This document shows positions 24,490 through 38,058 of a DNA stretch of 64,000 nt, in pieces. The DNA comes from Thermodesulfobacteriota bacterium (lineage in GTDB: Bacteria; Desulfobacterota; Desulfobacteria; Desulfobacterales; C00003060): the NCBI GenBank assembly GCA_034189385.1, contig JAXHVD010000010.1:32001-96000 (forward strand). The letters run 5' to 3'. The notes under the pieces were generated by a model that was not told the DNA's origin, made no database searches, and saw only the letters and a program-made list of their open reading frames with translations. The translations under genes were made by a program, and so were the position numbers. Position 1 is the first letter of the stretch. Every line of letters starts with the position of its first letter.

Positions 24490-27400
24490 TCACTGTGTGG
24501 GCTCGTAGTAGTACTCATCTGTTCCGTCTGTCCTTCTTTCTTTCCAGTAGAACACGCCCCTTTCCTCTGCGACCTCAAAAACCGTCTCTGTGGTCCCTGC
24601 AGAGGTGCTGAAGATCTTCATCTCCCTTTCGTCATCAGGCATTCTCACCATGACTGGCGGATAGAGCATCCCTGGAAAATCCATGCCCGTGGGAGGCACC
24701 AGGATGGGATTGCCCTCCCCATCGGTGAGACCGATGTCGATGAGGTCGTTGTCGTCAATGATCCCGTCATCGTTGATGTCAAAGGTGGCTTTGTTCAGCC
24801 GACCGCCGTTGCATGCATCCAGCTCGTGGACCAGGGAGTCGCCCCCACCAGAACAGGGCGACTCATTGGGAACAATAGACAAGGCCACGACCCTTCCGTC
24901 TCTGATCATGAGGTCCCTGATGATCCTTTCTCCAGTCAGGGGAAGATCAAAATACCACCCCGCATGATTTTCAACCGTGCTTGACGGGTTGGGCATGGCG
25001 TTTCCCACATCCAGATCCTCCTCTGTGACCCACACCGCTTCATGGTCGCTCAGGGTCCTCAAATAGTGATCGCCGAGGTACGTTTCGTTCACCACGGTCT
25101 GCTCCACCAGTGAGACGGTGTCCGGCTGGTTGGAGAGCTTAGGGGTCGACCCCCTGTCGAAGGTCCCCAGGTACTCGCTGTGGTCCCCCTTGTCTCCATA
25201 ATCCCATAACCCGAAGAGGGTCTGGGTGCTGACATCTGCCCGATCGGTGTCCCCAAGGAACTTGCCCGTGCCAAATACAACAATATGCCCGTGCCTTTCA
25301 CAGTGTTTCATTACATCGGGCGTCGTGGTGATGGGTTGACCTGGAATCCGAAAGAAGGCCTCCGGGATGCCATTTCCGTCCTTAAAGGCCACGTCCCAAT
25401 TGGCCGGGTCTTCATCGGTAAGATCGAATTTCCACAGATTCCCTTTCAGGTCTCCGGCGTAGGCGTAATCCACGCGGAAGTCCTTGTTCACGTCTATCAG
25501 GGCTGGAGTAGAAAGTCCGTTGTTGCCCGTGGCCAGGGTGTATATCTTCTTTATCACGTTTCCGTATACATCCATGACGTAGAGGATGGCCTCTCCTTCC
25601 ACGCTGTCGTACCCGTTGCCGAATATGATCACCCAGTCGTTGTTCGGGTCATAGGACTTGACAATGTATGGGTAACTGTACGTGTACCCCAGATCGGGCT
25701 CTTCCAGTCCGGCCCCAGGGTATTCCCACAACACCACCGAGCTTGCCACGGCGGCCTCTGCGGTTGATACGTCCACCTGATCAGCATCGGTGATGTCCAG
25801 GGCGAAATAGCCTTTCCCGCCCTTTCCCAATCCTCCCACAAGGAGCGTTCTTCCCTCATTCATGCCGATGGTGACCCTTTTTCTGGCATAGGGGGTGCGA
25901 TCTACGAAAAACCTGTGTTCATAGTCATTGCCCGTGAGCTCCTTTAAGTTCTCAAAAATCAGATGGGGGATGTAGGCAAAGCGCTCTTCTCCGTCCGTGG
26001 CATTGAAGGCGTGCAGCATCCCGTCGTTTCCCCCTGCAATGATGGTGTCTTCTACCAACAGGGGCGCTGAATGGACGATATCGCCCAGTTTCTTGACCCT
26101 GGGCCGAAAACCGTCTATCTCTTCACCCCTCAGGTAGTCCACCATGTTCTCGGCCAGGGTGGAGTCCGCTGCCCAATTGGGGTCCAGAGCCGTCTTCTGT
26201 TCGTCTGTGAGATTGGCAAACCGGAAAGGAACGCCTTCAGATGTGCCGTCGTAGGCCACAATCTTTCGCTGGTCCGGCGCACGGTCCTGGAGTTTGTCAG
26301 AGGCCTTCCATATGATATCGCTTTGTTCTTTGAGGATCTCTCCTGAAACCGGATCTACAGGGTAGGCTGTCACATCCCCTATCCAGCCGTCTGAGACGTA
26401 GCTTGACTGATACAGAATCGTGTTCGTCCCCAACTCCTCTCCATTGACTGTCACAGAGGCACCAGAGGCCATCCTTGAGGCAATGTTCAGCATCACTTGC
26501 TCCAAGGCGCTGATGAGTTCCCCTGGGTCTGACGCACTAAAGAAGAGCCCCCTGCCGTTTACGGCGGCATGCCACAGGTCGTCGATCTTATAGGGACAGC
26601 TGTCGCAACCGGATGTGGGATTGGGCCAAGGGGGGGCGCCGCCGTTCAGCAGGCAGGGGTGATAGGCCGTATAGTCCAAAGAGCCTTGCACCCCAAAAGA
26701 GACCGCATAGGTGACCATATGTTGATGAGAGGCCTTATCGCAAGAGCTGGTAGGGACCACGTCGTCCAGAGAAGAGGCGAGATCCTCTTTATAATACTTC
26801 ATGGCCACATCGGCCAAGGTGTCCGAATAGGAATCCCCGTAAGGTGACCCTGCTGCGCCGTCCTGGTTGCCCACGCCGGGGTTGGACCCGTTCCAATAGC
26901 CGTCGGTCATGGCAATGCAAAAGGAGTGCTGACAGGCCCCTCCCTCTTCATCAGGCATGTAGGGAGAGTCTCCCACGCCGCCAGTGTTTCCATCGTCTTT
27001 GTGAAAATAGCGACCCACGTTCTTCACGGCCAGTCTCAGGGGCGTGCTTCCGTCGGAATCAAGGCCGTACAGGGCGTCAAGGAGGGTGTCTGTTTCATCT
27101 ACGTAGGTCATTCCGCCACTGGCCACGGCCGTGCTTTCAAACATGACGGCATCTGCGCTGGTGCTCGAGCCGGTGCTGGAGCCGTCGCGGTAGACCCGGA
27201 CCTTTCCTGATGTGCCGGCGTCAAAATTAAAGGTCCCCAAAAGGGCCCACTGGCTGTAGTCCTGTTTCTGGTTCTTCCGGACCGAATAGGTGCCGCCGTT
27301 GTGATAGACCTTGTACAGGGCGTTCGTGTCCCTGGTGCTGTAGTAGTCCCACCATGCATAGACGTTGTATTCACCGGCTTCGGGCAGGTTTGGGCTCCAG

Positions 27401-28890
27401 GTGGCATAGCGGCCGCTGTAGCTGGTGTATCTGGAGCTGTTTTTGTATTCGTTATGTGCCCCTGATTCGTACCATCTGCCCCCGTATTCGTAATAGCCGC
27501 TATCCTTGTTGTCCACAATCACAATGGTACTTCCGCCAGGATCCGGCACATTCAACTTGACGGGAAGGACCGGCTGCCTCAGCCCGGAGTTAATACTGTA
27601 GAAGCCGACCTGAACGCCCACCAGGCTCATGATGGCGTGGGAGACAGCGGCCTTGGCCGTCAGCTCCCGCCTGCGGTAAAAGGAGTACCAGTTGGCGAAG
27701 TTTTGAAGGTCCTCGGCGTCTGTCTTGTAGGCGACGAAACTGCCATCATCGTCGAACCATGCGGCCTTGGCAGCGTCGGGGAGCTCATCTACGGGAAAGA
27801 ACTCTCCGCCTTCCACGATCTCATTCTCATTCCTGTCATGGAACCAGTAGTACTTTCTCACGCCCCCCTCAAAGTTGACAAGGAAATACTCTTCTCCGGC
27901 GTCCATCTCGCCGTCTTCGTCCACGTCGTCCCAGGTATAATAGTGGGCGTTCTTGATGCTGACCGTCGCTCCGCTTGTGGGGACAAACTTGATGGAATCC
28001 CCACAGACCCGCTCTTGATTGTTATCGCCCACGTAAGTAAAAATCCCGACGGTCCCGCCAGCGCCTTCCTCAAAGGTATAGGTGCCCAGGGGATACCAGG
28101 TGCCGCCGTTTTCGCGCTGGTTCACATGGACGACGGTGGGGCCCCCCTGATGGAAGATGGTGTAGGGCACGGCCGTGGACCGGTAGTCGTTGCTGAAGTA
28201 CCTGGCATAGACCTCGTACTCTCCACTGGCCAGCGGCGTGTACCAAACAGCGGTCACGTCCTGATCGTTCGCGTCGGTCCAGTAATAGAGGCCATTGTAA
28301 GCCTCTGGGTTTGAGGCCTGGCTCCAGCTCCCGGTGTGCGAGAAGACAGGGTCCTGATCGTCTGCGATGGACTCGCTGCCCACCAGGAAATACTCTGCCG
28401 TCAGGTCAAAGGTCGGGGTGGCGTTGTTCGGGTTGGATCTGGGGTGCGCGGTGTCTGCATCGGGCATGTTCGGCCACGGTTTGTAGTCTGCATGGGGGTG
28501 GTAATAGAGTTTGTTGAAGGCAGACATCTGGGCCTTGATTTTTCCCCTGTCAGCGCCGGATAAGATGGTCCCGTTGCTGCTTCCGGCACTATAATTGTTG
28601 TCTCCGGGGTCATCAAAGAGATACTCGATATCGCCTTCAAACTTGCCGTCTGTTTCTCCCTGTACCATGAACTCCCAGTCCATGCTCCCGGAATTGTCCA
28701 GCACGAACATGATGTTTGGAGGCGCGGCCATGACTTTGGTGTCCATGGGAGCGTCGCTGATGTCCAGGCCTCTTGCTGTTTGAGCAAAGCAGAGCAAGGC
28801 CATGGTCAGCGCTCCTATGCCAAGAAACAGCCCCGGTCTTTCCATTGCCCGGGCCGACCCGTCACCTCGATGGTTTCTATGAATAGACAT
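24490..28890 (-). CDS. pilY1: Type IV pilus tip adhesin PilY1/PilC
   Basis: Signal peptide; vWA-like FVLDNSGSM...TPLR...AMTDG; DDLWHAAVNGRG; beta-propeller LGDIVHSAP, GGNDGMLHAF; Ca loop DVNKDFRVDYAYAGDLKGNLWKFDL; GWYFDL. Confidence 0.93.
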   Translation of the reverse strand: MSIHRNHRGDGSARAMERPGLFLGIGALTMALLCFAQTARGLDISDAPMDTKVMAAPPNIMFVLDNSGSMDWEFMVQGETDGKFEGDIEYLFDDPGDNNYSAGSSNGTILSGADRGKIKAQMSAFNKLYYHPHADYKPWPNMPDADTAHPRSNPNNATPTFDLTAEYFLVGSESIADDQDPVFSHTGSWSQASNPEAYNGLYYWTDANDQDVTAVWYTPLASGEYEVYARYFSNDYRSTAVPYTIFHQGGPTVVHVNQRENGGTWYPLGTYTFEEGAGGTVGIFTYVGDNNQERVCGDSIKFVPTSGATVSIKNAHYYTWDDVDEDGEMDAGEEYFLVNFEGGVRKYYWFHDRNENEIVEGGEFFPVDELPDAAKAAWFDDDGSFVAYKTDAEDLQNFANWYSFYRRRELTAKAAVSHAIMSLVGVQVGFYSINSGLRQPVLPVKLNVPDPGGSTIVIVDNKDSGYYEYGGRWYESGAHNEYKNSSRYTSYSGRYATWSPNLPEAGEYNVYAWWDYYSTRDTNALYKVYHNGGTYSVRKNQKQDYSQWALLGTFNFDAGTSGKVRVYRDGSSTGSSTSADAVMFESTAVASGGMTYVDETDTLLDALYGLDSDGSTPLRLAVKNVGRYFHKDDGNTGGVGDSPYMPDEEGGACQHSFCIAMTDGYWNGSNPGVGNQDGAAGSPYGDSYSDTLADVAMKYYKEDLASSLDDVVPTSSCDKASHQHMVTYAVSFGVQGSLDYTAYHPCLLNGGAPPWPNPTSGCDSCPYKIDDLWHAAVNGRGLFFSASDPGELISALEQVMLNIASRMASGASVTVNGEELGTNTILYQSSYVSDGWIGDVTAYPVDPVSGEILKEQSDIIWKASDKLQDRAPDQRKIVAYDGTSEGVPFRFANLTDEQKTALDPNWAADSTLAENMVDYLRGEEIDGFRPRVKKLGDIVHSAPLLVEDTIIAGGNDGMLHAFNATDGEERFAYIPHLIFENLKELTGNDYEHRFFVDRTPYARKRVTIGMNEGRTLLVGGLGKGGKGYFALDITDADQVDVSTAEAAVASSVVLWEYPGAGLEEPDLGYTYSYPYIVKSYDPNNDWVIIFGNGYDSVEGEAILYVMDVYGNVIKKIYTLATGNNGLSTPALIDVNKDFRVDYAYAGDLKGNLWKFDLTDEDPANWDVAFKDGNGIPEAFFRIPGQPITTTPDVMKHCERHGHIVVFGTGKFLGDTDRADVSTQTLFGLWDYGDKGDHSEYLGTFDRGSTPKLSNQPDTVSLVEQTVVNETYLGDHYLRTLSDHEAVWVTEEDLDVGNAMPNPSSTVENHAGWYFDLPLTGERIIRDLMIRDGRVVALSIVPNESPCSGGGDSLVHELDACNGGRLNKATFDINDDGIIDDNDLIDIGLTDGEGNPILVPPTGMDFPGMLYPPVMVRMPDDEREMKIFSTSAGTTETVFEVAEERGVFYWKERRTDGTDEYYYEPTQ

Positions 28891-28945
28891 GATGAACACC
28901 CCTTTTCTTGATGTTGTGATACCAAAGGCCTTCACGGGACTCCAA

Positions 28946-29497
28946 TCAGTACCGCTTCTTGTAGCCGATCTCGATCATGGCGCTCCCTTTTTCTTTCTCA
29001 GAGCGGCCATAGACGGTGATGGTGTGCACGGCTGTAGCATCCATGCGCGTGCTGCTACCCCCAGAATATCCTTCGTGAATGGCCATGAACCTGGTCTGCC
29101 CGTTGTCATCTAACGGCGCCTCTCCTGAACCGTCCAGGGCAGCATCCCAGTTGTAATCGTTGGTGACATTGTCGGGGTCTGGGAAACCCGACAGATCGTT
29201 CCGAAACCACAGATCGGGTGGTGCTGCAGGGTTGTCAGGATCTGGCTGTCCGTATGGCAGGTCTTGGAGTGCCGCAGAATCATTCTCATCTTCCAGGAGC
29301 TGCGCAGCCAGCATGGCCGCGCCTTCGGCCCGGTAGAAATTCTCTTTGTGCGTCTTATCGTTTGCAGTGACCTCTACCTCAATCGAACTGGTAGTGACGG
29401 CCGCGATGCCGATGAGGCTTGCCAGCATCAAGACCAACATGCCCACGACCATGATGGACCCCTTTTCGTTTTTCAGTATGAAGTGCATCTCTCTCAT
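28946..29497 (-). CDS. pilX: Minor pilin PilX
   Basis: Prepilin leader NEKG|SIMVVGMLV lacking Glu+5 (typical of PilX), FYRAEGA. Confidence 0.85.
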   Translation of the reverse strand: MREMHFILKNEKGSIMVVGMLVLMLASLIGIAAVTTSSIEVEVTANDKTHKENFYRAEGAAMLAAQLLEDENDSAALQDLPYGQPDPDNPAAPPDLWFRNDLSGFPDPDNVTNDYNWDAALDGSGEAPLDDNGQTRFMAIHEGYSGGSSTRMDATAVHTITVYGRSEKEKGSAMIEIGYKKRY

Positions 29498-29526
29498 GGG
29501 AGGCCTCCCCTTCTTATGAGTAATGC

Positions 29527-30042
29527 CTAAACATCGCGAGCCTTTATGAAATCAAGAGCGACCCTTCTCGGGTCCGATGATCTTCCCCACGTCACAATCA
29601 CCCTGATGTTCACCGTGTTGTTGCCCGGAAGCGCCGTGTTCCAGAACACATTGAATGCCCCCCGATGATCAGTGCCTGTAATAGGGTTATTGGGATCGGC
29701 ATGATCGGCCCAACCGGGGTAGAGCACACTGCCGTCATTAGGATCAACGAACCCGTCATTGTTGCCATCATCATCGTTGTCCAATCCAGGGAGCCCGTCA
29801 CCGTTTGTATCTGCCAACAGGGTGTGAAGCACACCCGTGCTTGGATCAATATAGGGGATGAGCATCAAGGACTCTAACCGCTCTTCGGCCAGCGCCACGG
29901 CCCTGGCCTGATCATTTGCCAGGGCGTTGCCCTTGACGGACTTGATCTGCATGGCAGCTACGGCAAGAATACCGATGGCCAGCACAGCCATGGCCACCAT
30001 GACCTCTATAAGGGAAAACCCTTCTTCGTCCTTTGTTTTCAT
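29527..30042 (-). CDS. pilV: Minor pilin PilV
   Basis: G|FSLIEVMVAMAVLAIGILAVAAMQ, C-terminal VIVTW. Confidence 0.88.
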   Translation of the reverse strand: MKTKDEEGFSLIEVMVAMAVLAIGILAVAAMQIKSVKGNALANDQARAVALAEERLESLMLIPYIDPSTGVLHTLLADTNGDGLPGLDNDDDGNNDGFVDPNDGSVLYPGWADHADPNNPITGTDHRGAFNVFWNTALPGNNTVNIRVIVTWGRSSDPRRVALDFIKARDV

Positions 30043-30059
30043 GAATCATCGCCCCGTTT

Positions 30060-31091
30060 TTACAAGTTCCTGCATTTTGCAGTGGTCATCAGAAGCCTCA
30101 TGCGTCGATGGTCGTTGTTGGGATCAGCGTCGGTGTCTGGCGTGATGACCTGATTGCCCACCACAAAGGTGTTCCTCTCCACGATCTTGGTGTCCCAGCG
30201 CGCCGAACGTGCCAGGAGCCAAACACGCACGGCCATGATTCTGGCTACTGGCACATCAGCGATGGCAATTCCGGAAAAGTCCATCAGCATCTGGCCGCCG
30301 ATAGGGCCGTTTCCCCCCACGCCGGGACCGTCATCAGCGTCAATATCGCCATCACTGTCTGTATCTAAGTTGGTGTCCAGATCATTGTCTCCGTCCGAAT
30401 CGATGGCCCAAATCGTTCTCTCGCGCGGCGATCCTGCCGGTGCGTTGACAGCGTCATAGGTATCCAGAAGGCCATCGTTGTTGGCGTCAAAGGCATAGGC
30501 AAACCCGAGGGCCTCCACGTTTTCTGCAACGAACTCTTCTTCTGGCAGGGCTGGGTTTGCCGGGGGGACTGCTGCATCCTGCCTTCTGAGATCCAGGTCA
30601 GGACCCGGGTGGACAGGATCCATGAAACCGTCATTATCAATGTCGAAGAGGGAGTAGGTGATCGTCTCATTGGGATCGTCGGCAACGCCGTCACCGAACT
30701 GGAATTCATCGGCCTCAAGACCCGTATCCACCGTCCCATCGCCGTCGTCATCAATGCCGTTGGTGTCTTCGTCCGTAATGCCGTCCAAATCGTTATCGCG
30801 GCCATCACTCTCTCCGCCGGTGATATCCATGGTAAAGGTAATGGAGGTGGGGGCCGCTGTCTGAATGCCGAAGTTTCCTGAAATGGCCGTATCATAACCA
30901 GCCATGCGGATTTCTCTTCCCATGTAAAACATGGCGGCCTTCAGATTCTGCTGCATGGCCGCCACCTGTTCCTGGGTCACATAGGACTCCTGTTGCGTCC
31001 TGTAGGCCAAGAAGACGCCGCCGGCCACAATGGTGGACATGACCATGGCGATGAGGACCTCTATCAGTGTAAAACCTTGTCTGTTGAGCAT
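30060..31091 (-). CDS. pilW: Minor pilin PilW with Asp-rich inserts
   Basis: QG|FTLIEVLIAM, MQQNLKAAM...REIRMAGY, VAENVEAL, MAVRVWLLARS. Confidence 0.88.
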   Translation of the reverse strand: MLNRQGFTLIEVLIAMVMSTIVAGGVFLAYRTQQESYVTQEQVAAMQQNLKAAMFYMGREIRMAGYDTAISGNFGIQTAAPTSITFTMDITGGESDGRDNDLDGITDEDTNGIDDDGDGTVDTGLEADEFQFGDGVADDPNETITYSLFDIDNDGFMDPVHPGPDLDLRRQDAAVPPANPALPEEEFVAENVEALGFAYAFDANNDGLLDTYDAVNAPAGSPRERTIWAIDSDGDNDLDTNLDTDSDGDIDADDGPGVGGNGPIGGQMLMDFSGIAIADVPVARIMAVRVWLLARSARWDTKIVERNTFVVGNQVITPDTDADPNNDHRRMRLLMTTAKCRNL

Positions 31092-31118
31092 TTGCGACCT
31101 CTTCTTATTGATAGGTTA

Positions 31119-31724
31119 TCACTCATCAAAGGCGCCATCCCAATTTGCGCTGCCGGGGAACCATTTTCTGACGACGATATTCCCATTCGCCCTGGTTCCC
31201 ACTGCATAGGTGTGACGGCTTTGGAGAGGCCCGTTTCTGTTGTTTTCCAAATAGACAAAGCCCGCATTGCATAGCCCCCGGGAATCGAAGACCAGCACGT
31301 TGGAAGGGTACCCGATATCATCAAGGGCGGGAAAGATGCCCCCTCCTGCTGATGCATTGGTGGTAGCGTGACCGTGGCCGTAGTCTATGCTATTCCCGTA
31401 ACCGATGAGTCGCCCCTGCTTCCTCACCGTATCAGTGCCCCCCAATTGAGACGGCATGTCCCACCCATCTCCACCATTGTCAGAACACACAAAGTATCTT
31501 CCTGGAGAGACACTGTTATCAAAGATAATCGCCCAGTCTGAATTCGCTCTAATGGCTCCCAACTTGGTCCATTGCATGCTTGAATACAGATCTGTTGCAG
31601 CCCTCCTGAGCCTGAAGTTGTGCAGCCAGTCCGTAAGGCGGGGGGCGGCAAGATTGGCCACAATGGCCAAGGTGGCCAATGCCACCAGCAGTTCCACCAG
31701 TGTCAATCCAGAATCTTTGCGCAT
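31119..31724 (-). CDS. Minor pilin FimU/FimT (GspH family)
   Basis: SG|LTLVELLVAL, LRRAATDLYS, LVFDSRG. Start set at MRKDSG because the longer ORF start overlaps the sigma-54 promoter. Confidence 0.85.
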   Translation of the reverse strand: MRKDSGLTLVELLVALATLAIVANLAAPRLTDWLHNFRLRRAATDLYSSMQWTKLGAIRANSDWAIIFDNSVSPGRYFVCSDNGGDGWDMPSQLGGTDTVRKQGRLIGYGNSIDYGHGHATTNASAGGGIFPALDDIGYPSNVLVFDSRGLCNAGFVYLENNRNGPLQSRHTYAVGTRANGNIVVRKWFPGSANWDGAFDE

Positions 31725-31758
31725 CGTCCACATATCCTCGTCTGTTATCGCTATCCCG

Positions 31759-31774
31759 AGCAAGTTCTGTGCCA
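31759..31774 (-). promoter_or_regulatory. Sigma-54 (-24/-12) promoter of the minor pilin operon
   Basis: Minus strand TGGCACAGAACTTGCT matches TGGCAC-N5-TTGCW exactly, about 35 nt upstream of the fimU start. Confidence 0.85.
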
Positions 31775-32230
31775 TGCTGCCCGTGCGTGAGCCGAGGGCG
31801 CGGCCTGGTGAGAAAAGGGGGGCGAGAAAAGGGGGGCGCCTCCTGGGTACCAGCTATATCTTACTGTAATAAATAAAACATTTTTAGCGGGCTCCATGAT
31901 GACCAGAAAGGGAGGCCCTAGGCGTAAGATCTCACGACGAGGCTGTCTCCATGGGCCAGAAAGCCATCTATAAAAAAATTTTATAGTGCTGTCATAAAGT
32001 TTTATCCTTCATGTTGAGCCGCCGGCCCCCCAAGGATGAGATCCCTGGAGCCGGGGGGGAAACGAGATCGGGCGTTTCTGGATGCTGGAGACTCCGTGGA
32101 GGAAATCTCCTTTGGCGCTGGCGCACAGGGTCGGGGTATGCTAGGTAGGGTGCCGACAGTGGGCGGTTTACCTGTTCCTTACTGAAGGCCTGTGGAAGCG
32201 TCCGGACTAGCTTTGGGCGGTGCTCTGAAT

Positions 32231-33883
32231 ATGGACGGAAGGGACCTGAAAAGAGAGAGGACCACTTTGGAAAAGGCCCTTCTTACCAAAGAGTTGGATT
32301 TCAGTGCCGCCTATATGACCGCAAGCGACCTGCACGGCCTTCTTAAGAGACATCCTGAGCTCATCCGTCCAAAGACCGTTCAAGCCTTGGAAGGGCTCCT
32401 CAAGGATTCACGATATGCTCCTCAAACGCAATCATTCTTTTTTTACAAAGAGGCCGCCGATGCCTTGGCTTCTATTGTCGTCCATGGCAATGGGAAACCG
32501 AGTACAAACGTTGCGATCTCCGCCTTAAAGCAGTTGCTTGCCACTGCGATCGGCGATTCTAAAAGGGCCTGTGCTGAGGCCTTGGGCTCTCTTCCGGTCT
32601 TTATTGCAGGTCCCAAGAAAAGGCAAGAGGCCGTAGAGGACGTACCCCATGTAACGTGGCAGGCCCTATTGGAACAACGGGGTATCTGCAAGGGCAACGC
32701 CCCCGAGGTGATGGGCAGAAGCCTGGTCCTTTCAACGGATCAAGGGAATCGCCTCTTGGTACTAAAGGTGGCCTTTTCAGAACATCCGGCCCAGTCCATC
32801 TATGAAGAAGCGGTCTGGATGGCACATCTTTCTTCGCAAGGCTATGATTTTCCCGTTAGATTCAATATTCCGAGGGCCATCAGAATGCACGGCAGCTATA
32901 TCTTCGCCTTAGAGGATCTGCCACAAGAAATGTATTCAAGAGGGGCCCTGAATCTGACGGCTCATGCCGTGGGCTTTATTGCCCATCGGGATTACTTCAC
33001 CTATCCCAACGACCATAGGAAAGAAAAACGGCTGACTGAAGAGGAGTTTAGGGAAGTCATGTCCAGAAATGCTTGGCTTTTTGGGAAACTGGCCTCTATG
33101 GGCATTGTCCATTCGGCGCCAATCCCCCTCTTTCACAATCGAGTCCAAAGGACCAGGCGGGCCGATCATGGGCTTTACGAATGGCAACGAGGGGGCAGGC
33201 TGGACAGGTGGCTTGACTCATGCCTCTATCCCAATTTTGGTGTCACAGGCATCAGAGACTTTGAACACCTCGTCGCCTTCAAGGGACCAAGTCGACAGAT
33301 CTACTTTCGTGTCGGCACGCAGATATTGAGCCTGCTCCTTGTCACAGGCAGCTATTTTCGACACAAAGATAGAACAAGAGTGGGACTGGATGACCACGGA
33401 AATCCAGTGGATGCTCGGGACCTTTTTGACAAGCCATTGCTCAGAGACCTTCTTCAGGAAATTTTTCTAAACTATTACAATGGGTTTGTGGGAGAGGCCT
33501 TTGATGGAGGATGTCCCGTAGATGGTGAGGTCATAGCCTGCCGCATGATTGAAGAAATGGGTGTGGACCGCTATATGGAAGAGGTCCTAAGGGTCGTGGA
33601 CCAAAGAGAAATGACAGATGAAGCCTTCAGGGCATTCTTGACCACAAGGGGCTATACAGGGGAACAGGTCCAAGGTTTCACAAAAGGCGTTGAAGACATC
33701 GTCATCTTGAGCGGCCCCCATTTGGGTGGATTCAATGAACGGATCAGTCTGCCCGAGCTCATTGACGCCGTTGGGACCATGTCCGCCCTGTGCATGGTTG
33801 GCAGATACTCCAAGGAAAAGCCTTCTAGTAAGGATCACGCAGAAGGATGTGGGAAGTCCTTAGAACAGCGAAAAGCGTTGTAG
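32231..33883 (+). CDS. SidJ-related pseudokinase
   Basis: Helical N-terminus; LLVLKVA; HSAPIPLFHNRVQRTRRADHGLYEW..GGRLDRWLDSCLYPNFGVTGIRDFEH; GPHLGGFNERISLPEL. Recognised from memory of the SidJ-like family. Alternative start GTG 32192. Confidence 0.8.
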   Translation: MDGRDLKRERTTLEKALLTKELDFSAAYMTASDLHGLLKRHPELIRPKTVQALEGLLKDSRYAPQTQSFFFYKEAADALASIVVHGNGKPSTNVAISALKQLLATAIGDSKRACAEALGSLPVFIAGPKKRQEAVEDVPHVTWQALLEQRGICKGNAPEVMGRSLVLSTDQGNRLLVLKVAFSEHPAQSIYEEAVWMAHLSSQGYDFPVRFNIPRAIRMHGSYIFALEDLPQEMYSRGALNLTAHAVGFIAHRDYFTYPNDHRKEKRLTEEEFREVMSRNAWLFGKLASMGIVHSAPIPLFHNRVQRTRRADHGLYEWQRGGRLDRWLDSCLYPNFGVTGIRDFEHLVAFKGPSRQIYFRVGTQILSLLLVTGSYFRHKDRTRVGLDDHGNPVDARDLFDKPLLRDLLQEIFLNYYNGFVGEAFDGGCPVDGEVIACRMIEEMGVDRYMEEVLRVVDQREMTDEAFRAFLTTRGYTGEQVQGFTKGVEDIVILSGPHLGGFNERISLPELIDAVGTMSALCMVGRYSKEKPSSKDHAEGCGKSLEQRKAL

Positions 33884-34809
33884 CAAAGAGCCGACATGTG
33901 CAGATTGACAAGGAGGCCCTGGCACGATTCTGCCAAAACCTGGTCAATGAGGCCATCACCATTCCCTCTTGGAATAGAAGGTACCATTTTTCCGGGAACA
34001 AAGACGATACCGTCTCCTACCTATTGGTCCTGGACAGCCTGAATTTCTGCTTCTGGCCCAGTTCTGGAAAGGCGAAGTGGAACATCGACTACGGGCAGAA
34101 ACAGCTCTCTGGCTACTATGCCCTGGCAGCCTCTCTCAAAAAGACGTTCAAGTCCGGAATCCCTGTGGGCAAGGCAGACTACCTGAGGGCCCTTACCCTG
34201 GACGAACTAAGAAGGATTCTAGGCGGACAAGGGGAATTGCAACTCATGGAACGTCGTCTACAAATCCTCCACGAACTGGGCCAGGTCTTGATCTCAGATT
34301 TCAGGGGTAAGGCATCCCAGTTGGTCGTCTGTGCTGGCCAATCCGCCATCCGCTTGGCTCGACTGTTGGCCGAGAAACTGACATCATTTCAAGATGTTTC
34401 AAAACATGAGGGGGAGAAGGTCTTCTTCTACAAACGGGCCCAGATATTTGCTGCTGACCTTCACGGCGCATTTGATGGCAAAGACGAGGGGGCCTTTCAG
34501 GACATGGACCAACTCACTGCCTTTGCCGATTACAAACTGCCCCAGGTGCTGCGTCACGCCGGTATCCTTCGATACTCAGGGGCGCTCGTTGAAAAGGTGG
34601 ACCAAGAGGTCCTCCTTGAGCCAGGAAGTCCAGAGGAGGTAGAGATCCGGGCCAACACCATCTGGGCCGTGGAACTTATCCGGCTGGAACTGGAGGGCAT
34701 GGGAAAATCCCTCAGGGCCTTTGAGATCGATTGGCTCCTCTGGAATCTGGGACAAGGATCGGTGTGTAGGATAAAACCCTATCACAAGACAGTGACCATT
34801 TTTTACTGA
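33847..34809 (+). CDS. Queuosine-nucleotide N-glycosylase/hydrolase (queuosine salvage protein, Qng1/DUF2419)
   Basis: VLDSLNFCFW, GYYALAASL, FYKRAQI, LTAFADYKLPQVL, EVEIRA, IDWLLW, PYHKT. Confidence 0.92.
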   Translation: MWEVLRTAKSVVAKSRHVQIDKEALARFCQNLVNEAITIPSWNRRYHFSGNKDDTVSYLLVLDSLNFCFWPSSGKAKWNIDYGQKQLSGYYALAASLKKTFKSGIPVGKADYLRALTLDELRRILGGQGELQLMERRLQILHELGQVLISDFRGKASQLVVCAGQSAIRLARLLAEKLTSFQDVSKHEGEKVFFYKRAQIFAADLHGAFDGKDEGAFQDMDQLTAFADYKLPQVLRHAGILRYSGALVEKVDQEVLLEPGSPEEVEIRANTIWAVELIRLELEGMGKSLRAFEIDWLLWNLGQGSVCRIKPYHKTVTIFY

Positions 34810-34810
34810 T

Positions 34811-35127
34811 ACAAGTTGGCGTCTCAGGGCTAGAAAAGAAGCGCACCCTTATCAACCGTTAGAAATAACTACTAAAAGTGTTCTGAGGTTTCTAGAAAAC
34901 GGAAGAACCCTGCCTTGAACCTTTTTGATGCAATGGGAGCCTCGGGAGAGGGAAATCCGCTTCTCTTCGGCCTCCAATGCCTTTCGTTGCTGCGGGGAGA
35001 TGGTTCGTGGTAATGGCTGTAGGTCTCCGTTCAGCGAATTTCCCACCCCCTCTGTTGCGCATCCCGAGGAGGGATAGAAGTCTTGACAGGCCTACTTTTA
35101 GTGGAAACGAGGGGTGCGAAACTTGAG
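34811..35127. mobile_element. 317-bp non-autonomous insertion with 7-8 bp target-site duplication
   Basis: Flanked by TTACTGAT at 34803-34810 and 35128-35135; ends ACAAGTTGGCG...GCGAAACTTGAG (short inverted CAAGTT/AACTTG); second copy at 10.5-10.7 kb. Confidence 0.85.
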
Positions 35128-35133
35128 TTACTG

Positions 35134-36333
35134 ATGTTCTCATTTGAGGTATTAGCTGAACAAGGAAGGGCCCGGGCCAGCCGCTTGGTCACCCCTCATG
35201 GGCCTATCGACACCCCCTCCTTTGTCCCTGTGGGCACCCAGGGAACCGTCAAGACACTGTCGGGAGAAGATCTTCGTGGGATGGGAAGCCAGGTGGTGAT
35301 CACCAATGCCTACCATCTTCATCTCCAACCGGGCGAGGATGTAATCAAGAGACTTGGAGGGCTCCATGGATTCATGGGATGGGACGGCCCCCTGATGATG
35401 GATTCCGGGGGGTTTCAGATCTTCAGCCTCGGGGCAGGCAAAGAACATGGGGTGGGAAAGATCGCCCCGATCTTTCCGGAAGAGCAAGACCGGGGACGGC
35501 ACCTGCGTCCTGGTAAAGGAAAACGGCTAGTCAAGGTAGACGAGGAAGGGGTGGAATTTGTCTCGTACCTGGACGGCTCCAGACATCGTTTTACGCCCCA
35601 TGGCGTCCTCGAGATAGAGGAGAAGCTAGGGGCCGATATCATTTTAATCCTCGATGAGTGCACCTCTCCTCTCCACGACTACCGGTACACCGAGATGGCC
35701 ATGGAGCGGACCCACCGCTGGGCCCTCCAGGCCCTGGGGGCATTCCAGGGCTCTGGCAATAAAAGACAAGCCCTTTTTGGAATCGTTCAGGGTGGAATGT
35801 ATGAGGACCTGAGGCAAGAAAGTGCCTCCTTTATTGGAGATCAGAATTTCGACGGTTTTGCCATTGGTGGCTCCCTCGGCAGATCCAAGACAGAGATGCA
35901 CCAAGTGTTGGAGTGGGTTGTCCCTCTTCTGCCAGCAGAGAAGCCGCGCCATCTCCTGGGCATTGGCGACATGGACGACATCTTCCAGGTCGTAAACCGT
36001 GGAATCGATCTCTTCGACTGCGTGGCACCGACGCGTATGGCCCGCACGGGAACGGTTTTTTCCAAAGGGGCGAAACGTCATAGAATACATATCCTCAATG
36101 CCCAGTTCAGGGAAGACCGGCGCCCCATTGACGGGACATGCCACTGTCCCACCTGTCGCCACTACTCCAGGGCCTATCTGAGACACCTATTTATCGCCAA
36201 GGAGCTTCTGGGGGTGCGGCTGGCAACGATTCACAATGTCTGGTTCCTTGAATCGCTCATGGGCCAGATCCGAAGTGCTATCAGAGAAGGAAGGCTTGGG
36301 GACCTGGAAAGAGAATGGTGCCCTCAAACCTAG
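35134..36333 (+). CDS. tgt: tRNA-guanine transglycosylase
   Basis: FVPVGTQGTVK, NAYHL, DSGGFQIFSL, LDECT, GIVQGG, AIGGSLG, PRHLLGIG, DLFDCVAPTR, Zn site CHCPTC...HN. Confidence 0.97.
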   Translation: MFSFEVLAEQGRARASRLVTPHGPIDTPSFVPVGTQGTVKTLSGEDLRGMGSQVVITNAYHLHLQPGEDVIKRLGGLHGFMGWDGPLMMDSGGFQIFSLGAGKEHGVGKIAPIFPEEQDRGRHLRPGKGKRLVKVDEEGVEFVSYLDGSRHRFTPHGVLEIEEKLGADIILILDECTSPLHDYRYTEMAMERTHRWALQALGAFQGSGNKRQALFGIVQGGMYEDLRQESASFIGDQNFDGFAIGGSLGRSKTEMHQVLEWVVPLLPAEKPRHLLGIGDMDDIFQVVNRGIDLFDCVAPTRMARTGTVFSKGAKRHRIHILNAQFREDRRPIDGTCHCPTCRHYSRAYLRHLFIAKELLGVRLATIHNVWFLESLMGQIRSAIREGRLGDLEREWCPQT

Positions 36334-36431
36334 TCCCTGGGGTCAGGTGAGATAGGGATCTTTTCGTCCTCCTCGACCCTTGGAGTGTCTCTGCCGGTGT
36401 GTTGCGGGCAACTGCCCTGCCCTGTCGTCCC

Positions 36432-36632
36432 TCAGGTGGATTTGCTCAAGACCTCTCCAACCCTAAAGAGCGTGTCCATCAGATGGCCTATCCGCCTGCG
36501 AAGCTCGACATATCCCTCTGCCGACAGTTCACCATCGCAAGCCCTGAGCGCTCTGATAGCCGCCTCTATCTTCTCGAGCGCCTCACTCTGTTTTGCAGAT
36601 GCCGTCAGAGAGCCATCCTCCTCTTTATCCAA
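36432..36632 (-). CDS. Small hypothetical helical protein
   Basis: 66 aa ORF, TTG start with AGGAG RBS 7 nt upstream; no recognised family. Confidence 0.45.
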   Translation of the reverse strand: MDKEEDGSLTASAKQSEALEKIEAAIRALRACDGELSAEGYVELRRRIGHLMDTLFRVGEVLSKST

Positions 36633-36712
36633 CTGATTTCTCCTCCTGTGGCAAGGCCCTGATCCGCTGCAAGGGCCCCATGAAGACTCCTGGGCCGTGA
36701 CCTTTTCGACCT

Positions 36713-36913
36713 GAGACCTTTGCAGAACCCCTTCTCACTTCATTCTGTGAGCGATTTGACCCATTTTTAGCCTTGCTCGCTAAATCGCAAAAAATCGCCC
36801 TAAGGGCCTCAAACAGTTTGCGATTTGCCCACTAGTGTGGGCCGCTCGCTGTGGCCAAATGGGTACCCCAAATAGCTCACAATTACCGTTCGAAAGAGTT
36901 ATGCAAAGGTCTC
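36713..36913. mobile_element. 201-bp palindromic MITE
   Basis: TIRs GAGACCTTTGCAGAAC / GTTATGCAAAGGTCTC (15/16), flanking direct repeat GACCT, internal inverted arms. Confidence 0.85.
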
Positions 36914-37125
36914 GACCTGCGTGGGGTGTAGTCGAAACGATAGATGGTCGACGGAGAAATGTCAATCGATATTAAACAGTTATGTTTTTTTGCTCGCCAA
37001 GACCGCGCCCCTGGGGCCAAGGGAGGACAGGGCAACACCGCCAGTCCACACAGGCATGTGACGCCCCTTTCAACCCATTTTTGGTTTGCCTAACGGGGCG
37101 CATTCTTATATGAAACAGCTTATTA

Positions 37126-37245
37126 GTGTCCATCCATACATGACATTCTTTGCACGAATAGTGCATCTCCGCGGTGTTGCTCCTGCGGTGAAAACCCTTG
37201 TACGGCCTTGCCTTAGGACAAGATCCACCCTTTCTGGATGGACAC
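37126..37245. mobile_element. 120-bp MITE-like element
   Basis: Perfect 11-bp TIR GTGTCCATCCA / TGGATGGACAC; ends resemble those of 52849-53011. Confidence 0.7.
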
Positions 37246-37395
37246 ACGCGAATGTGTTGTGTCGTCGAAAAAAAACGTTCGTGGAAGGGGATTGATGAGC
37301 TCTTTTTCGCAGGCCTGGGGAAATGACACCTTGATCCAGAAGCCTTTGGGTACGGCGCGGGTGATGTTGGAGACTCTGTTGGAAAGCCGACGGTC

Positions 37396-38058
37396 ATGCG
37401 TTACTATCCTGTAAACTTGGACGTCCGACACAGGGACTGTCTCGTGGTAGGAGGGGGGAGCGTCGCCGAGCGAAAGGTGCGAACCCTCCTTGAATGTGGG
37501 GCCAAGATTACAGTCATTACCCTGGACGCCACCGAACACCTTGAGGCACTAGGGACAAATAGTCATATTTCACTGAGATTCAAGGGGTATCAATCATCTG
37601 ACCTGGACGGAAGGTTTCTTGTCATTGGTGCCACGGACGACGAATTGACGAACCAGACCATCAGCCAGGACGCCGCAGCCCGAGGGATTCTCTGCAATAT
37701 CGCCGACCGTCCTGGAGTCTGCACGTTTGTCCTTCCTGCCATTGCCTGCCAAGGCGACTTGGTCATTGCCATTTCCACCTCAAATAAGAGTCCGGCAGTG
37801 GCAAAGTACATACGGCAAGCCATGGAAAAGGAATTCGGGCCGGAATATGCCGCGCTCTTGAACCTCATGGGAGCCATTCGCCAAAGGTTCATGGCCGAGG
37901 CAAAGAGCCCAGAGGCCCACAAGGAGCTCTTCGGCCGGTTGCTTGATAAGGGGCTTGTGGAAATGATCCGAGAGGATCGCCTTCAAGATGTAGACGCCCT
38001 ACTCAAAGAGGTGTTGGGAAACGGATATACGTGGAAGGATCTAGTGACAAGCCATTGA
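37396..38058 (+). CDS. sirC: Precorrin-2 dehydrogenase / sirohydrochlorin ferrochelatase (SirC/CysG N-terminal type)
   Basis: YYPVNL, LVVGGGSVAERK, VIGATDD, CNIADRP, IAISTSNKSPA. Confidence 0.92.
   Translation: MRYYPVNLDVRHRDCLVVGGGSVAERKVRTLLECGAKITVITLDATEHLEALGTNSHISLRFKGYQSSDLDGRFLVIGATDDELTNQTISQDAAARGILCNIADRPGVCTFVLPAIACQGDLVIAISTSNKSPAVAKYIRQAMEKEFGPEYAALLNLMGAIRQRFMAEAKSPEAHKELFGRLLDKGLVEMIREDRLQDVDALLKEVLGNGYTWKDLVTSH

Follow-up and report, generated by a model that had tools for sequence, protein, structure and literature searches.

A qng1-tgt2 gene pair beside a complete queuosine pathway in a Desulfobacterales genome suggests a probable second, direct route to queuosine-modified tRNA

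A stretch of 64,000 nucleotides from the genome of a Thermodesulfobacteriota bacterium of the order Desulfobacterales (assembly GCA_034189385.1, contig JAXHVD010000010.1, positions 32,001 to 96,000; hereafter the window, in whose own numbering coordinates are given) carries on its forward strand two neighbouring genes of queuosine (Q) metabolism: qng1 (33847..34809, 320 amino acids) and tgt2 (35134..36333, 399 amino acids), the latter encoding a bacterial tRNA-guanine(34) transglycosylase (TGT) with a short pocket loop. The same genome contains a complete set of genes for de novo queuosine synthesis, together with a canonical TGT. We consider it reasonably probable that qng1 and tgt2 form a unit that was acquired horizontally, is probably co-translated, and would provide a second, direct route to Q-modified tRNA beside synthesis. 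Qng1, the TGT families, the direct route and the GGSLG loop are already known in print. Our literature search, which covered texts and not motif tables given only as figures, did not reveal any description of a qng1-tgt unit in a genome that also has the full de novo pathway, and prior mention is possible.

Queuosine synthesis genes in the host genome

The host genome is 90.4% complete and 4.2% contaminated. The canonical TGT (TGT1; GGLSVGE, YVMGVG) is encoded on contig C1, directly after queA. The genes queE and queC are adjacent on contig C64 (QueE is the best match, yet below its cut-off, 267 vs 300 bits), queD and queF are located on contig C34, and queG on contig C12. Only two TGT homologues were found in the genome at an E-value of 1e-3, both with catalytic motifs, and all four tRNAs with GUN anticodons (Asp, Asn, His, Tyr) are encoded. 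The initial annotation, made from the letters of the window, had reported no que gene there and had proposed a genome-wide search; the former agrees with the location of these genes on contigs C1, C12, C34 and C64, and the latter revealed queC, D, E, F, A and G and the second tgt. The genome is thus not of the direct-salvage type, in which tgt stands alone. The annotation had also put forward a two-step salvage route. Our results support its link between Qng1 and a queuine-type TGT; the organism does not, however, depend on salvage. Since de novo synthesis as well as a canonical queA-tgt locus are encoded, qng1-tgt2 would be an accessory second route.

No match to QueH, QPTR, QueT or the QueK family was found in the genome at its 90.4% completeness. 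A TIGR01212 match considered as QueL proved to be MnmL/YtqA, without similarity to any structure of a queuine lyase. Among eight short open reading frames (ORFs) bearing the motif no QueL was identified, which is not a proper test for this enzyme, as one of them is QueE and only three were scanned (two NrdG2 and one weak PA0069-type protein). A search of Rfam over 31700-37500 gave no match, and so no preQ1 riboswitch, and promoter- and terminator-like sites around the pair occur at chance level only.

The Qng1 protein

The product of qng1 matches PF10343 (DUF2419) over its full length with 294 bits (cut-off 25), and the structures of Sphaerobacter thermophilus Qng1 likewise give a full-length match, with an E-value of 7e-94. 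Of the 17 named active-site residues, whose roles are described in PMC9881137, 16 are identical, and W94 is replaced by Tyr; the equivalents of D231, K199, D69, N72, D207, D298, W302 and the C-terminal Y323 are all kept. D206, named once in the same source, corresponds to Ala, and Asp sits at the 207 position. The identification of the gene upstream of tgt as qng1, already made in the initial annotation, therefore stands. The protein is a full-length homologue of S. thermophilus Qng1 and human QNG1 (PDB 7u07, 7uk3), and its predicted release of queuine from Q-5'-monophosphate or queuosine is well supported by homology. According to PMC9881137, Q-5'-monophosphate from tRNA decay may be recycled by QNG1; the same source describes S. 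thermophilus as a bacterium without de novo genes, whereas the host studied here has them.

TGT2 as a bacterial TGT with an insert

TGT2 scores 480 bits against TIGR00430 (cut-off 307), has the Asp280 nucleophile and a Cys3His zinc site, and shows the TGT fold. Its residues D90, D174 and D295 and the zinc ligands C336, C338, C341 and H367 are all in place; an alternative in-frame TTG start at 35083 would add 17 residues. The AlphaFold model, which is confident (predicted local distance difference test, pLDDT, 90), aligned with Zymomonas mobilis TGT with a Z score of 52.9 and a root mean square deviation of 1.5 Å over 366 residues, and these searches confirm the fold, without a residue-level superposition. 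Structures of bacterial TGTs were matched better than those of eukaryotic ones (348 vs 245 bits), and a search of the ESM Atlas returned only TGT clusters. TGT2 is neither a DpdA nor an archaeosine TGT (NF041059, 24 vs 200 bits; TIGR00432, 143 vs 350 bits), and shares 44% identity with the canonical paralog on contig C1.

Four features set in the initial annotation were all recovered: the DEC motif with C176, the Cys158 equivalent (35653..35661), the pocket loop AIGGSLGRS (35860..35886), the HLLGIG that replaces YLMGVG (35950..35967), and a 30-residue insert after DSGGFQIFSLG (residues 101-130; 35434..35523), all on the forward strand. In TGT2 and its best 120 homologues (n=121) the pattern at the loop was read as SLG in 119 and PLG in one, with one mis-match, and LLGIG and LDECTS were found in 111 and 115, respectively. 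The motifs are conserved across homologues and so are not due to chance.

The insert begins at a position conserved in the clade, and its residues 109-126 are of low confidence in the model. It is basic and clade-specific, and the position of Lys264 is occupied by Asp or Glu in enzymes of this type. These features might indicate that TGT2 serves another target or base, such as a subset of GUN tRNAs, another RNA, a queuine derivative or epoxyqueuine, the insert steering the choice of RNA. In all near-complete genomes of the phylum that have it, TGT2 is retained next to a canonical enzyme; this, and the occurrence of a GG[YF]LG variant without a Qng1 match, would fit this explanation, which we nevertheless regard as improbable: the same TGT type is the sole TGT of three other genomes, the DpdA and archaeosine models score far below their cut-offs, no extra partner gene recurs, and T300, R301, R304 and K40, which we take to match anticodon-binding residues, are kept.

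The pocket loop

From the GG to the EM motif the loop of TGT2 comprises 11 residues vs 12 in Z. mobilis TGT, which amounts to a one-residue deletion. The pocket loop of eukaryotic TGTs is of full length. The alignment register at position 233 varies because the gap can be placed differently in the shorter loop. In three of the five pairwise alignments shown, in the profile search, in a profile-profile alignment (41 short-loop vs 42 canonical sequences) and in MAFFT, the gap falls at Leu231 and Leu248 stands opposite Val233; Gly249 takes this place only in two pairwise alignments, both to chains that are themselves Gly at 233. In neither register does Glu235 have an acidic partner. The Gly that the initial annotation had assigned to the equivalent of Zymomonas Val233 was thus not confirmed as stated, and its eukaryote-like pocket gives way to a one-residue deletion, the loss of Glu235 and the retention of Cys158, where eukaryotes have Val. 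As to the Val-to-Gly change, eukaryotic TGTs have Val at 158 and Gly at 233, but Val233Gly alone does not give queuine insertion, and the conversion of a bacterial TGT by Val233Gly/Cys158Val failed (PMC3660597).

TGT2 departs from the canonical preQ1 type, GGL[AS]VGE with Val233 and Glu235 followed by YLMGVG, in having GGSLGRS and HLLGIG, and agrees with it in Cys158 (C176). From eukaryotic QTRT1, with Val158 and an inactive QTRT2 partner, it differs in Cys158, and both TGTs of the host have catalytic motifs. With the Chlamydia-like group termed BL-TGT, for which Gly is assigned at 233 in PMC12301720, it shares the short GGSxG loop, HLLGIG and a grouping apart from canonical enzymes; the Leu at 158 given for that group in the same source is replaced by Cys (DEC). 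Short loop, His and long insert co-vary in 37 of 139 aligned rows, GGxxxGE, Tyr and a short linker in 67, and the remaining 35 are mixed or other.

A GGSLG loop was modelled for Anaplasma at 4.0 Å from queuine, vs less than 1 Å for Val220 of a GGLAVG loop (PMC11570991). According to PMC3660597, Glu235 supports the peptide flip of Leu231/Ala232, Cys158 favours preQ1, and queuine inhibits bacterial TGT in vitro.

Phylogenetic position and origin of TGT2

Short-loop TGTs were separated from canonical TGTs with a Shimodaira-Hasegawa (SH) support of 99 in a first tree and 100/99 in a second, the groups having been named only after the first tree was seen. The short-loop side includes a Nocardia enzyme with GGALE, proteins of Woesearchaeota, Aenigmarchaeota and Chloroflexota, and seven proteins labelled Chlamydiae. 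All eight aligned TGTs labelled Chlamydiae or Babeliales (seven and one) have GG-S[LM]G and HLLGIG in the register of TGT2, and all eight have DEL at 158. Within this wider short-loop group, TGT2 forms, on the sequence trees, a separate branch. Beyond its own group, the sequences nearest to it bear the labels Bipolaricaulota and Thermotogota, while its close relatives are labelled Desulfobacterales, Desulfobacteria or Deltaproteobacteria, in line with the anaerobe presumed in the initial annotation.

An origin of TGT1 and TGT2 by duplication was considered and rejected: a tree joining both paralog groups gave p 5.9e-6 in an approximately unbiased (AU) test, chosen after the first tree was seen, which argues that TGT2 was acquired and not duplicated. 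A plasmid origin found no support, as all 72 matches in the plasmid collection were below 60% identity, and among the 25 listed none exceeded 46%.

A TGT2-like variant with an aromatic loop residue (GG[YF]LG) was observed in six genomes of one family (L182-L187); these also encode a canonical TGT, but no match to Qng1 was found in them.

Distribution and linkage of the pair

Among 36 relatives of the genus, TGT2 was found in 20 and Qng1 in 22; as in the other surveys below, the genomes are related, so that these numbers lack independence. In 18 of the TGT2 genomes, qng1 immediately precedes tgt2 (of the other two, one locus is truncated by contig ends and the second lacks a qng1 match), with a stop/start overlap in 10 and spacers of 111-364 nt in 8. 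A second tgt beside queA accompanies TGT2 in 17 of the 20 (in one case a fragment), the other three genomes being 52-76% complete; the canonical type was judged from score and position, the motif being read for two. QueF was found in 19 of these 20 relatives, and QueG or QueH in 17. Outside the genus, other families of the order (24 genomes) yielded the pair once, and a sample of 400 other genomes of the phylum contained Qng1 above the cut-off in 25 (one further match was weaker), a TGT2-like protein in 12, both in 6 and adjacent genes in 4, with a canonical-scoring TGT in all 12.

Of 45 Qng1 loci in metagenomes, 21 lie near a gene of the TGT2 type, whereas a canonical tgt was seen at none; 12 others are cut short, and one has no usable match. 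The order qng1-tgt is also seen in one genome each of Acetothermia and Woesearchaeota. In these two and in a Thermotogae genome the short-loop TGT is the only TGT found, and a QueA match is absent from two of the three, both of unstated completeness, the Acetothermia genome having one. The association of Qng1 with a queuine-type TGT, proposed in the initial annotation, is supported by the conserved synteny, the stop/start overlap, and the pocket loop and place in the tree that TGT2 has in common with TGTs labelled Chlamydiae. No transporter or kinase neighbour recurs over 52 loci (28 representatives scanned; many flanks span only 1.5 kb).

Several further observations concern these genomes. 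QueG exceeds its cut-off in only 5 of the 36 relatives, and the resulting suspicion that the final step of de novo synthesis is missing from the genus was discarded on finding QueH in 25 others; the two never occur together in the genus. Three genomes of the same order as the host (G050, G051, G040) have a second TGT of another kind (GGVSVGEG, YLMGVG, DECVE; L090:4048-5253, L091:4033-5172, L092:2414-3532), which sits on a long branch of its own within the canonical TGTs and shares no neighbours in the two loci scanned. The Woesearchaeota-labelled contig (L017:4075-6194) combines the qng1-tgt order, a sole TGT and no QueA match, which suggests direct queuine salvage in an archaeon; a queA-queH-tgt arrangement is described for DPANN archaea in PMC8204110.

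Proposed route and competing explanations

In the proposed route, Qng1 would cut Q-5'-monophosphate or queuosine to free queuine, and TGT2 would exchange G34 of tRNAs with GUN anticodons for queuine, bypassing preQ1 synthesis, QueA and QueG/QueH. We infer this insertion of queuine at G34 from the loop and the clade of TGT2; since Cys158 is kept, the enzyme may take preQ1 too. As to the source of queuine, the least firm part of the scheme, it may come mainly from the turnover of the cell's own tRNA, because no known importer was found; uptake through an unrecognised carrier would be the alternative. The canonical queA-tgt route would run in parallel, and the clearing of free queuine, an in vitro inhibitor of canonical TGT, might be an extra benefit.

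A number of points weigh against this proposal. In the pocket, most alignments place Leu and not Gly at position 233, and Cys158 is kept, while Leu (DEL) stands at 158 in 119 of 119 homologues of the Chlamydiae-like protein P0193. The likeness to Chlamydia is drawn from Chlamydiae-labelled proteins, among which the C. trachomatis sequence itself is not included, and pocket motifs have misled before, as the TGT of Bartonella henselae accepts both bases (PMC11570991). TGT2 is missing from 16 of the 36 genus relatives, several of them 91-98% complete. In the phylum sample, 19 of the 25 genomes with Qng1 lack TGT2, and each of these 19 has queA as well as a canonical-scoring TGT. Of the 12 TGT2-like genomes, 6, from one family with the GG[YF]LG loop, have no Qng1 match. 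In metagenomes, 11 of the 45 Qng1 loci have no tgt in at least 1.4 kb downstream. Finally, importers span many families (PMC11130926), so that the absence of an importer is weak evidence for an internal source. As a separate observation on the Qng1 tree, 13 of the 19 genomes with Qng1 and without TGT2 (L102-L126) fall in one supported Qng1 clade.

Some of these points could also mean that TGT2 is a redundant inserter of preQ1 or preQ0, that Qng1 only removes Q nucleotides or supplies an indirect route by way of an unrecognised queuine lyase, and that the pairing was inherited from the donor. Cys158, the Leu aligned to Val233 and the 19 Qng1 genomes that manage with queA and a canonical-scoring TGT would all be explained in this way, as would the QueA match of the Acetothermia genome that has a short-loop TGT alone, and an Acidobacteriota importer encoded beside qng1 carried preQ0/preQ1 (PMC11130926). 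We think this unlikely: a redundant copy would hardly stay coupled to qng1 under purifying selection, Glu235, the support of the preQ1 peptide flip, is lost, and an enzyme of this type is the sole TGT of two genomes without a QueA match; no QueL was identified either, with the limits of that search given above.

The direct route beside synthesis thus remains the reading we prefer. A bolder form of it is tentative: a closed loop of Q recycling in free-living anaerobes, with de novo synthesis through TGT1 and recovery from the cell's degraded tRNA through Qng1 and a TGT2 dedicated to queuine. Such a loop would spare the late steps that depend on S-adenosylmethionine (SAM) and cobalamin/Fe-S, would keep queuine off TGT1, and would make this the first bacterium in which two tRNA-34 transglycosylases are both active and each handles a different base.

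Relation to known systems

The TGT of C. trachomatis inserts queuine, and direct salvage with QPTR/YhhQ is described (PMC11570991, PMC12301720). Chlamydiae-labelled TGTs lie on TGT2's side of the 100/99 split and share its short GGS[LM]G loop, HLLGIG and insert after DSGGFQ. In contrast to them, TGT2, at 41-45% identity, has Cys158 instead of Leu and FDCVAP instead of FDSSYP; its partner is Qng1 and not QPTR, and its host has retained synthesis from scratch together with QueA, QueG and a TGT of the canonical type. With the canonical bacterial TGTs of Z. mobilis and Escherichia coli it has in common the fold, the catalytic Asp, Cys158 and the zinc site, but it is one loop residue shorter, lacks Glu235, differs by HLLGIG and the insert of 30 residues, and is encoded with qng1 and not queA. 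The proposed succession from Q nucleotide to queuine to tRNA resembles that of eukaryotic QTRT1/QTRT2 with QNG1, although eukaryotic enzymes have Val158 and Gly233 (PMC3660597) and a second subunit. Genomes with DpdA also possess a second gene of the TGT family, and two tgt genes are mentioned only for DpdA in the available text of PMC5699537; TGT2 is not a DpdA, as its score indicates. Chloropicon algae combine eTGT and BL-TGT with QNG1, QueA and QueG, but there the routes are predicted in separate compartments, and the available text of PMC12301720 lists no genes of preQ synthesis.

Direct insertion of queuine has so far been described for host-dependent organisms without synthesis, and bacteria have been sorted by gene presence as de novo makers or salvagers (PMC11130926, PMC11570991), a scheme which a lineage with both routes does not fit. 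The retention of both suggests that makers of queuine can be recyclers or competitors in sediments. As TGT1 and TGT2 come from one cell and have the same Cys158 and different loops, they offer a natural pair for the question, left by the failed Val233Gly/Cys158Val conversion (PMC3660597), of what permits queuine insertion by a TGT of bacterial type. The annotation by TIGR00430 names both enzymes alike, so that pairs of this kind are easily missed.

The junction of the pair and its maintenance

In the host, the 324-nt spacer between qng1 and tgt2 is made of a dispersed non-coding repeat of about 318 bp (34810..35127), hairpin-rich, with 8-bp inverted ends, similar to a miniature inverted-repeat transposable element (MITE). 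It is flanked by a 7-bp target duplication (34803-34809 and 35128-35134) that preserves the stop of qng1 and the start of tgt2. The repeat has 80 matches on 28 contigs of the genome, 19 of them, with this copy counted, of at least 200 nt, and in two close relatives its left end is the exact inverse of the right end in the window. The repeat is a later insertion into the qng1-tgt2 overlap seen in relatives. Other, unrelated insertions were observed at the same junction in relatives.

This insertion, together with the patchy occurrence in the genus (20 of 36), the split tgt2 of one relative (G002) and the 4.2% contamination of the assembly, might suggest that the pair has no function at present and is either a passenger, decaying or of recent arrival, or an artefact of binning. 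We hold this to be very improbable. In a crude pairwise comparison with three close metagenome relatives, the ratio of nonsynonymous to synonymous substitution rates (dN/dS) was 0.17-0.23 for qng1 and 0.13-0.15 for tgt2, and both genes are under purifying selection; the tgt2 frame is intact in 19 of the 20 relatives, 17 of which have two TGTs. The GC content at third codon positions (GC3) of the pair, 0.62-0.63, is like that of queA, tgt1 and hemA (0.60-0.63), and the close metagenome relatives have the same flanking genes. In G002 (L048, G002:C6:1200-2320), tgt2 lies in two pieces, as a pseudogene or through an assembly error.

Neighbouring genes

A SidJ-related pseudokinase (32192-33883, forward strand; NF033874, 681 bits) overlaps the start of qng1. 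It also lies close to one or other gene of the pair in G021 (L045, where it is convergent) and in G392 (L119); as the pseudokinase is missing from most loci, it is probably not part of the qng1-tgt2 unit. Further upstream, on the reverse strand (24490-31775), there is a run of ORFs whose translations resemble minor pilins of type IV pili and a PilY1-like protein of 1481 amino acids.

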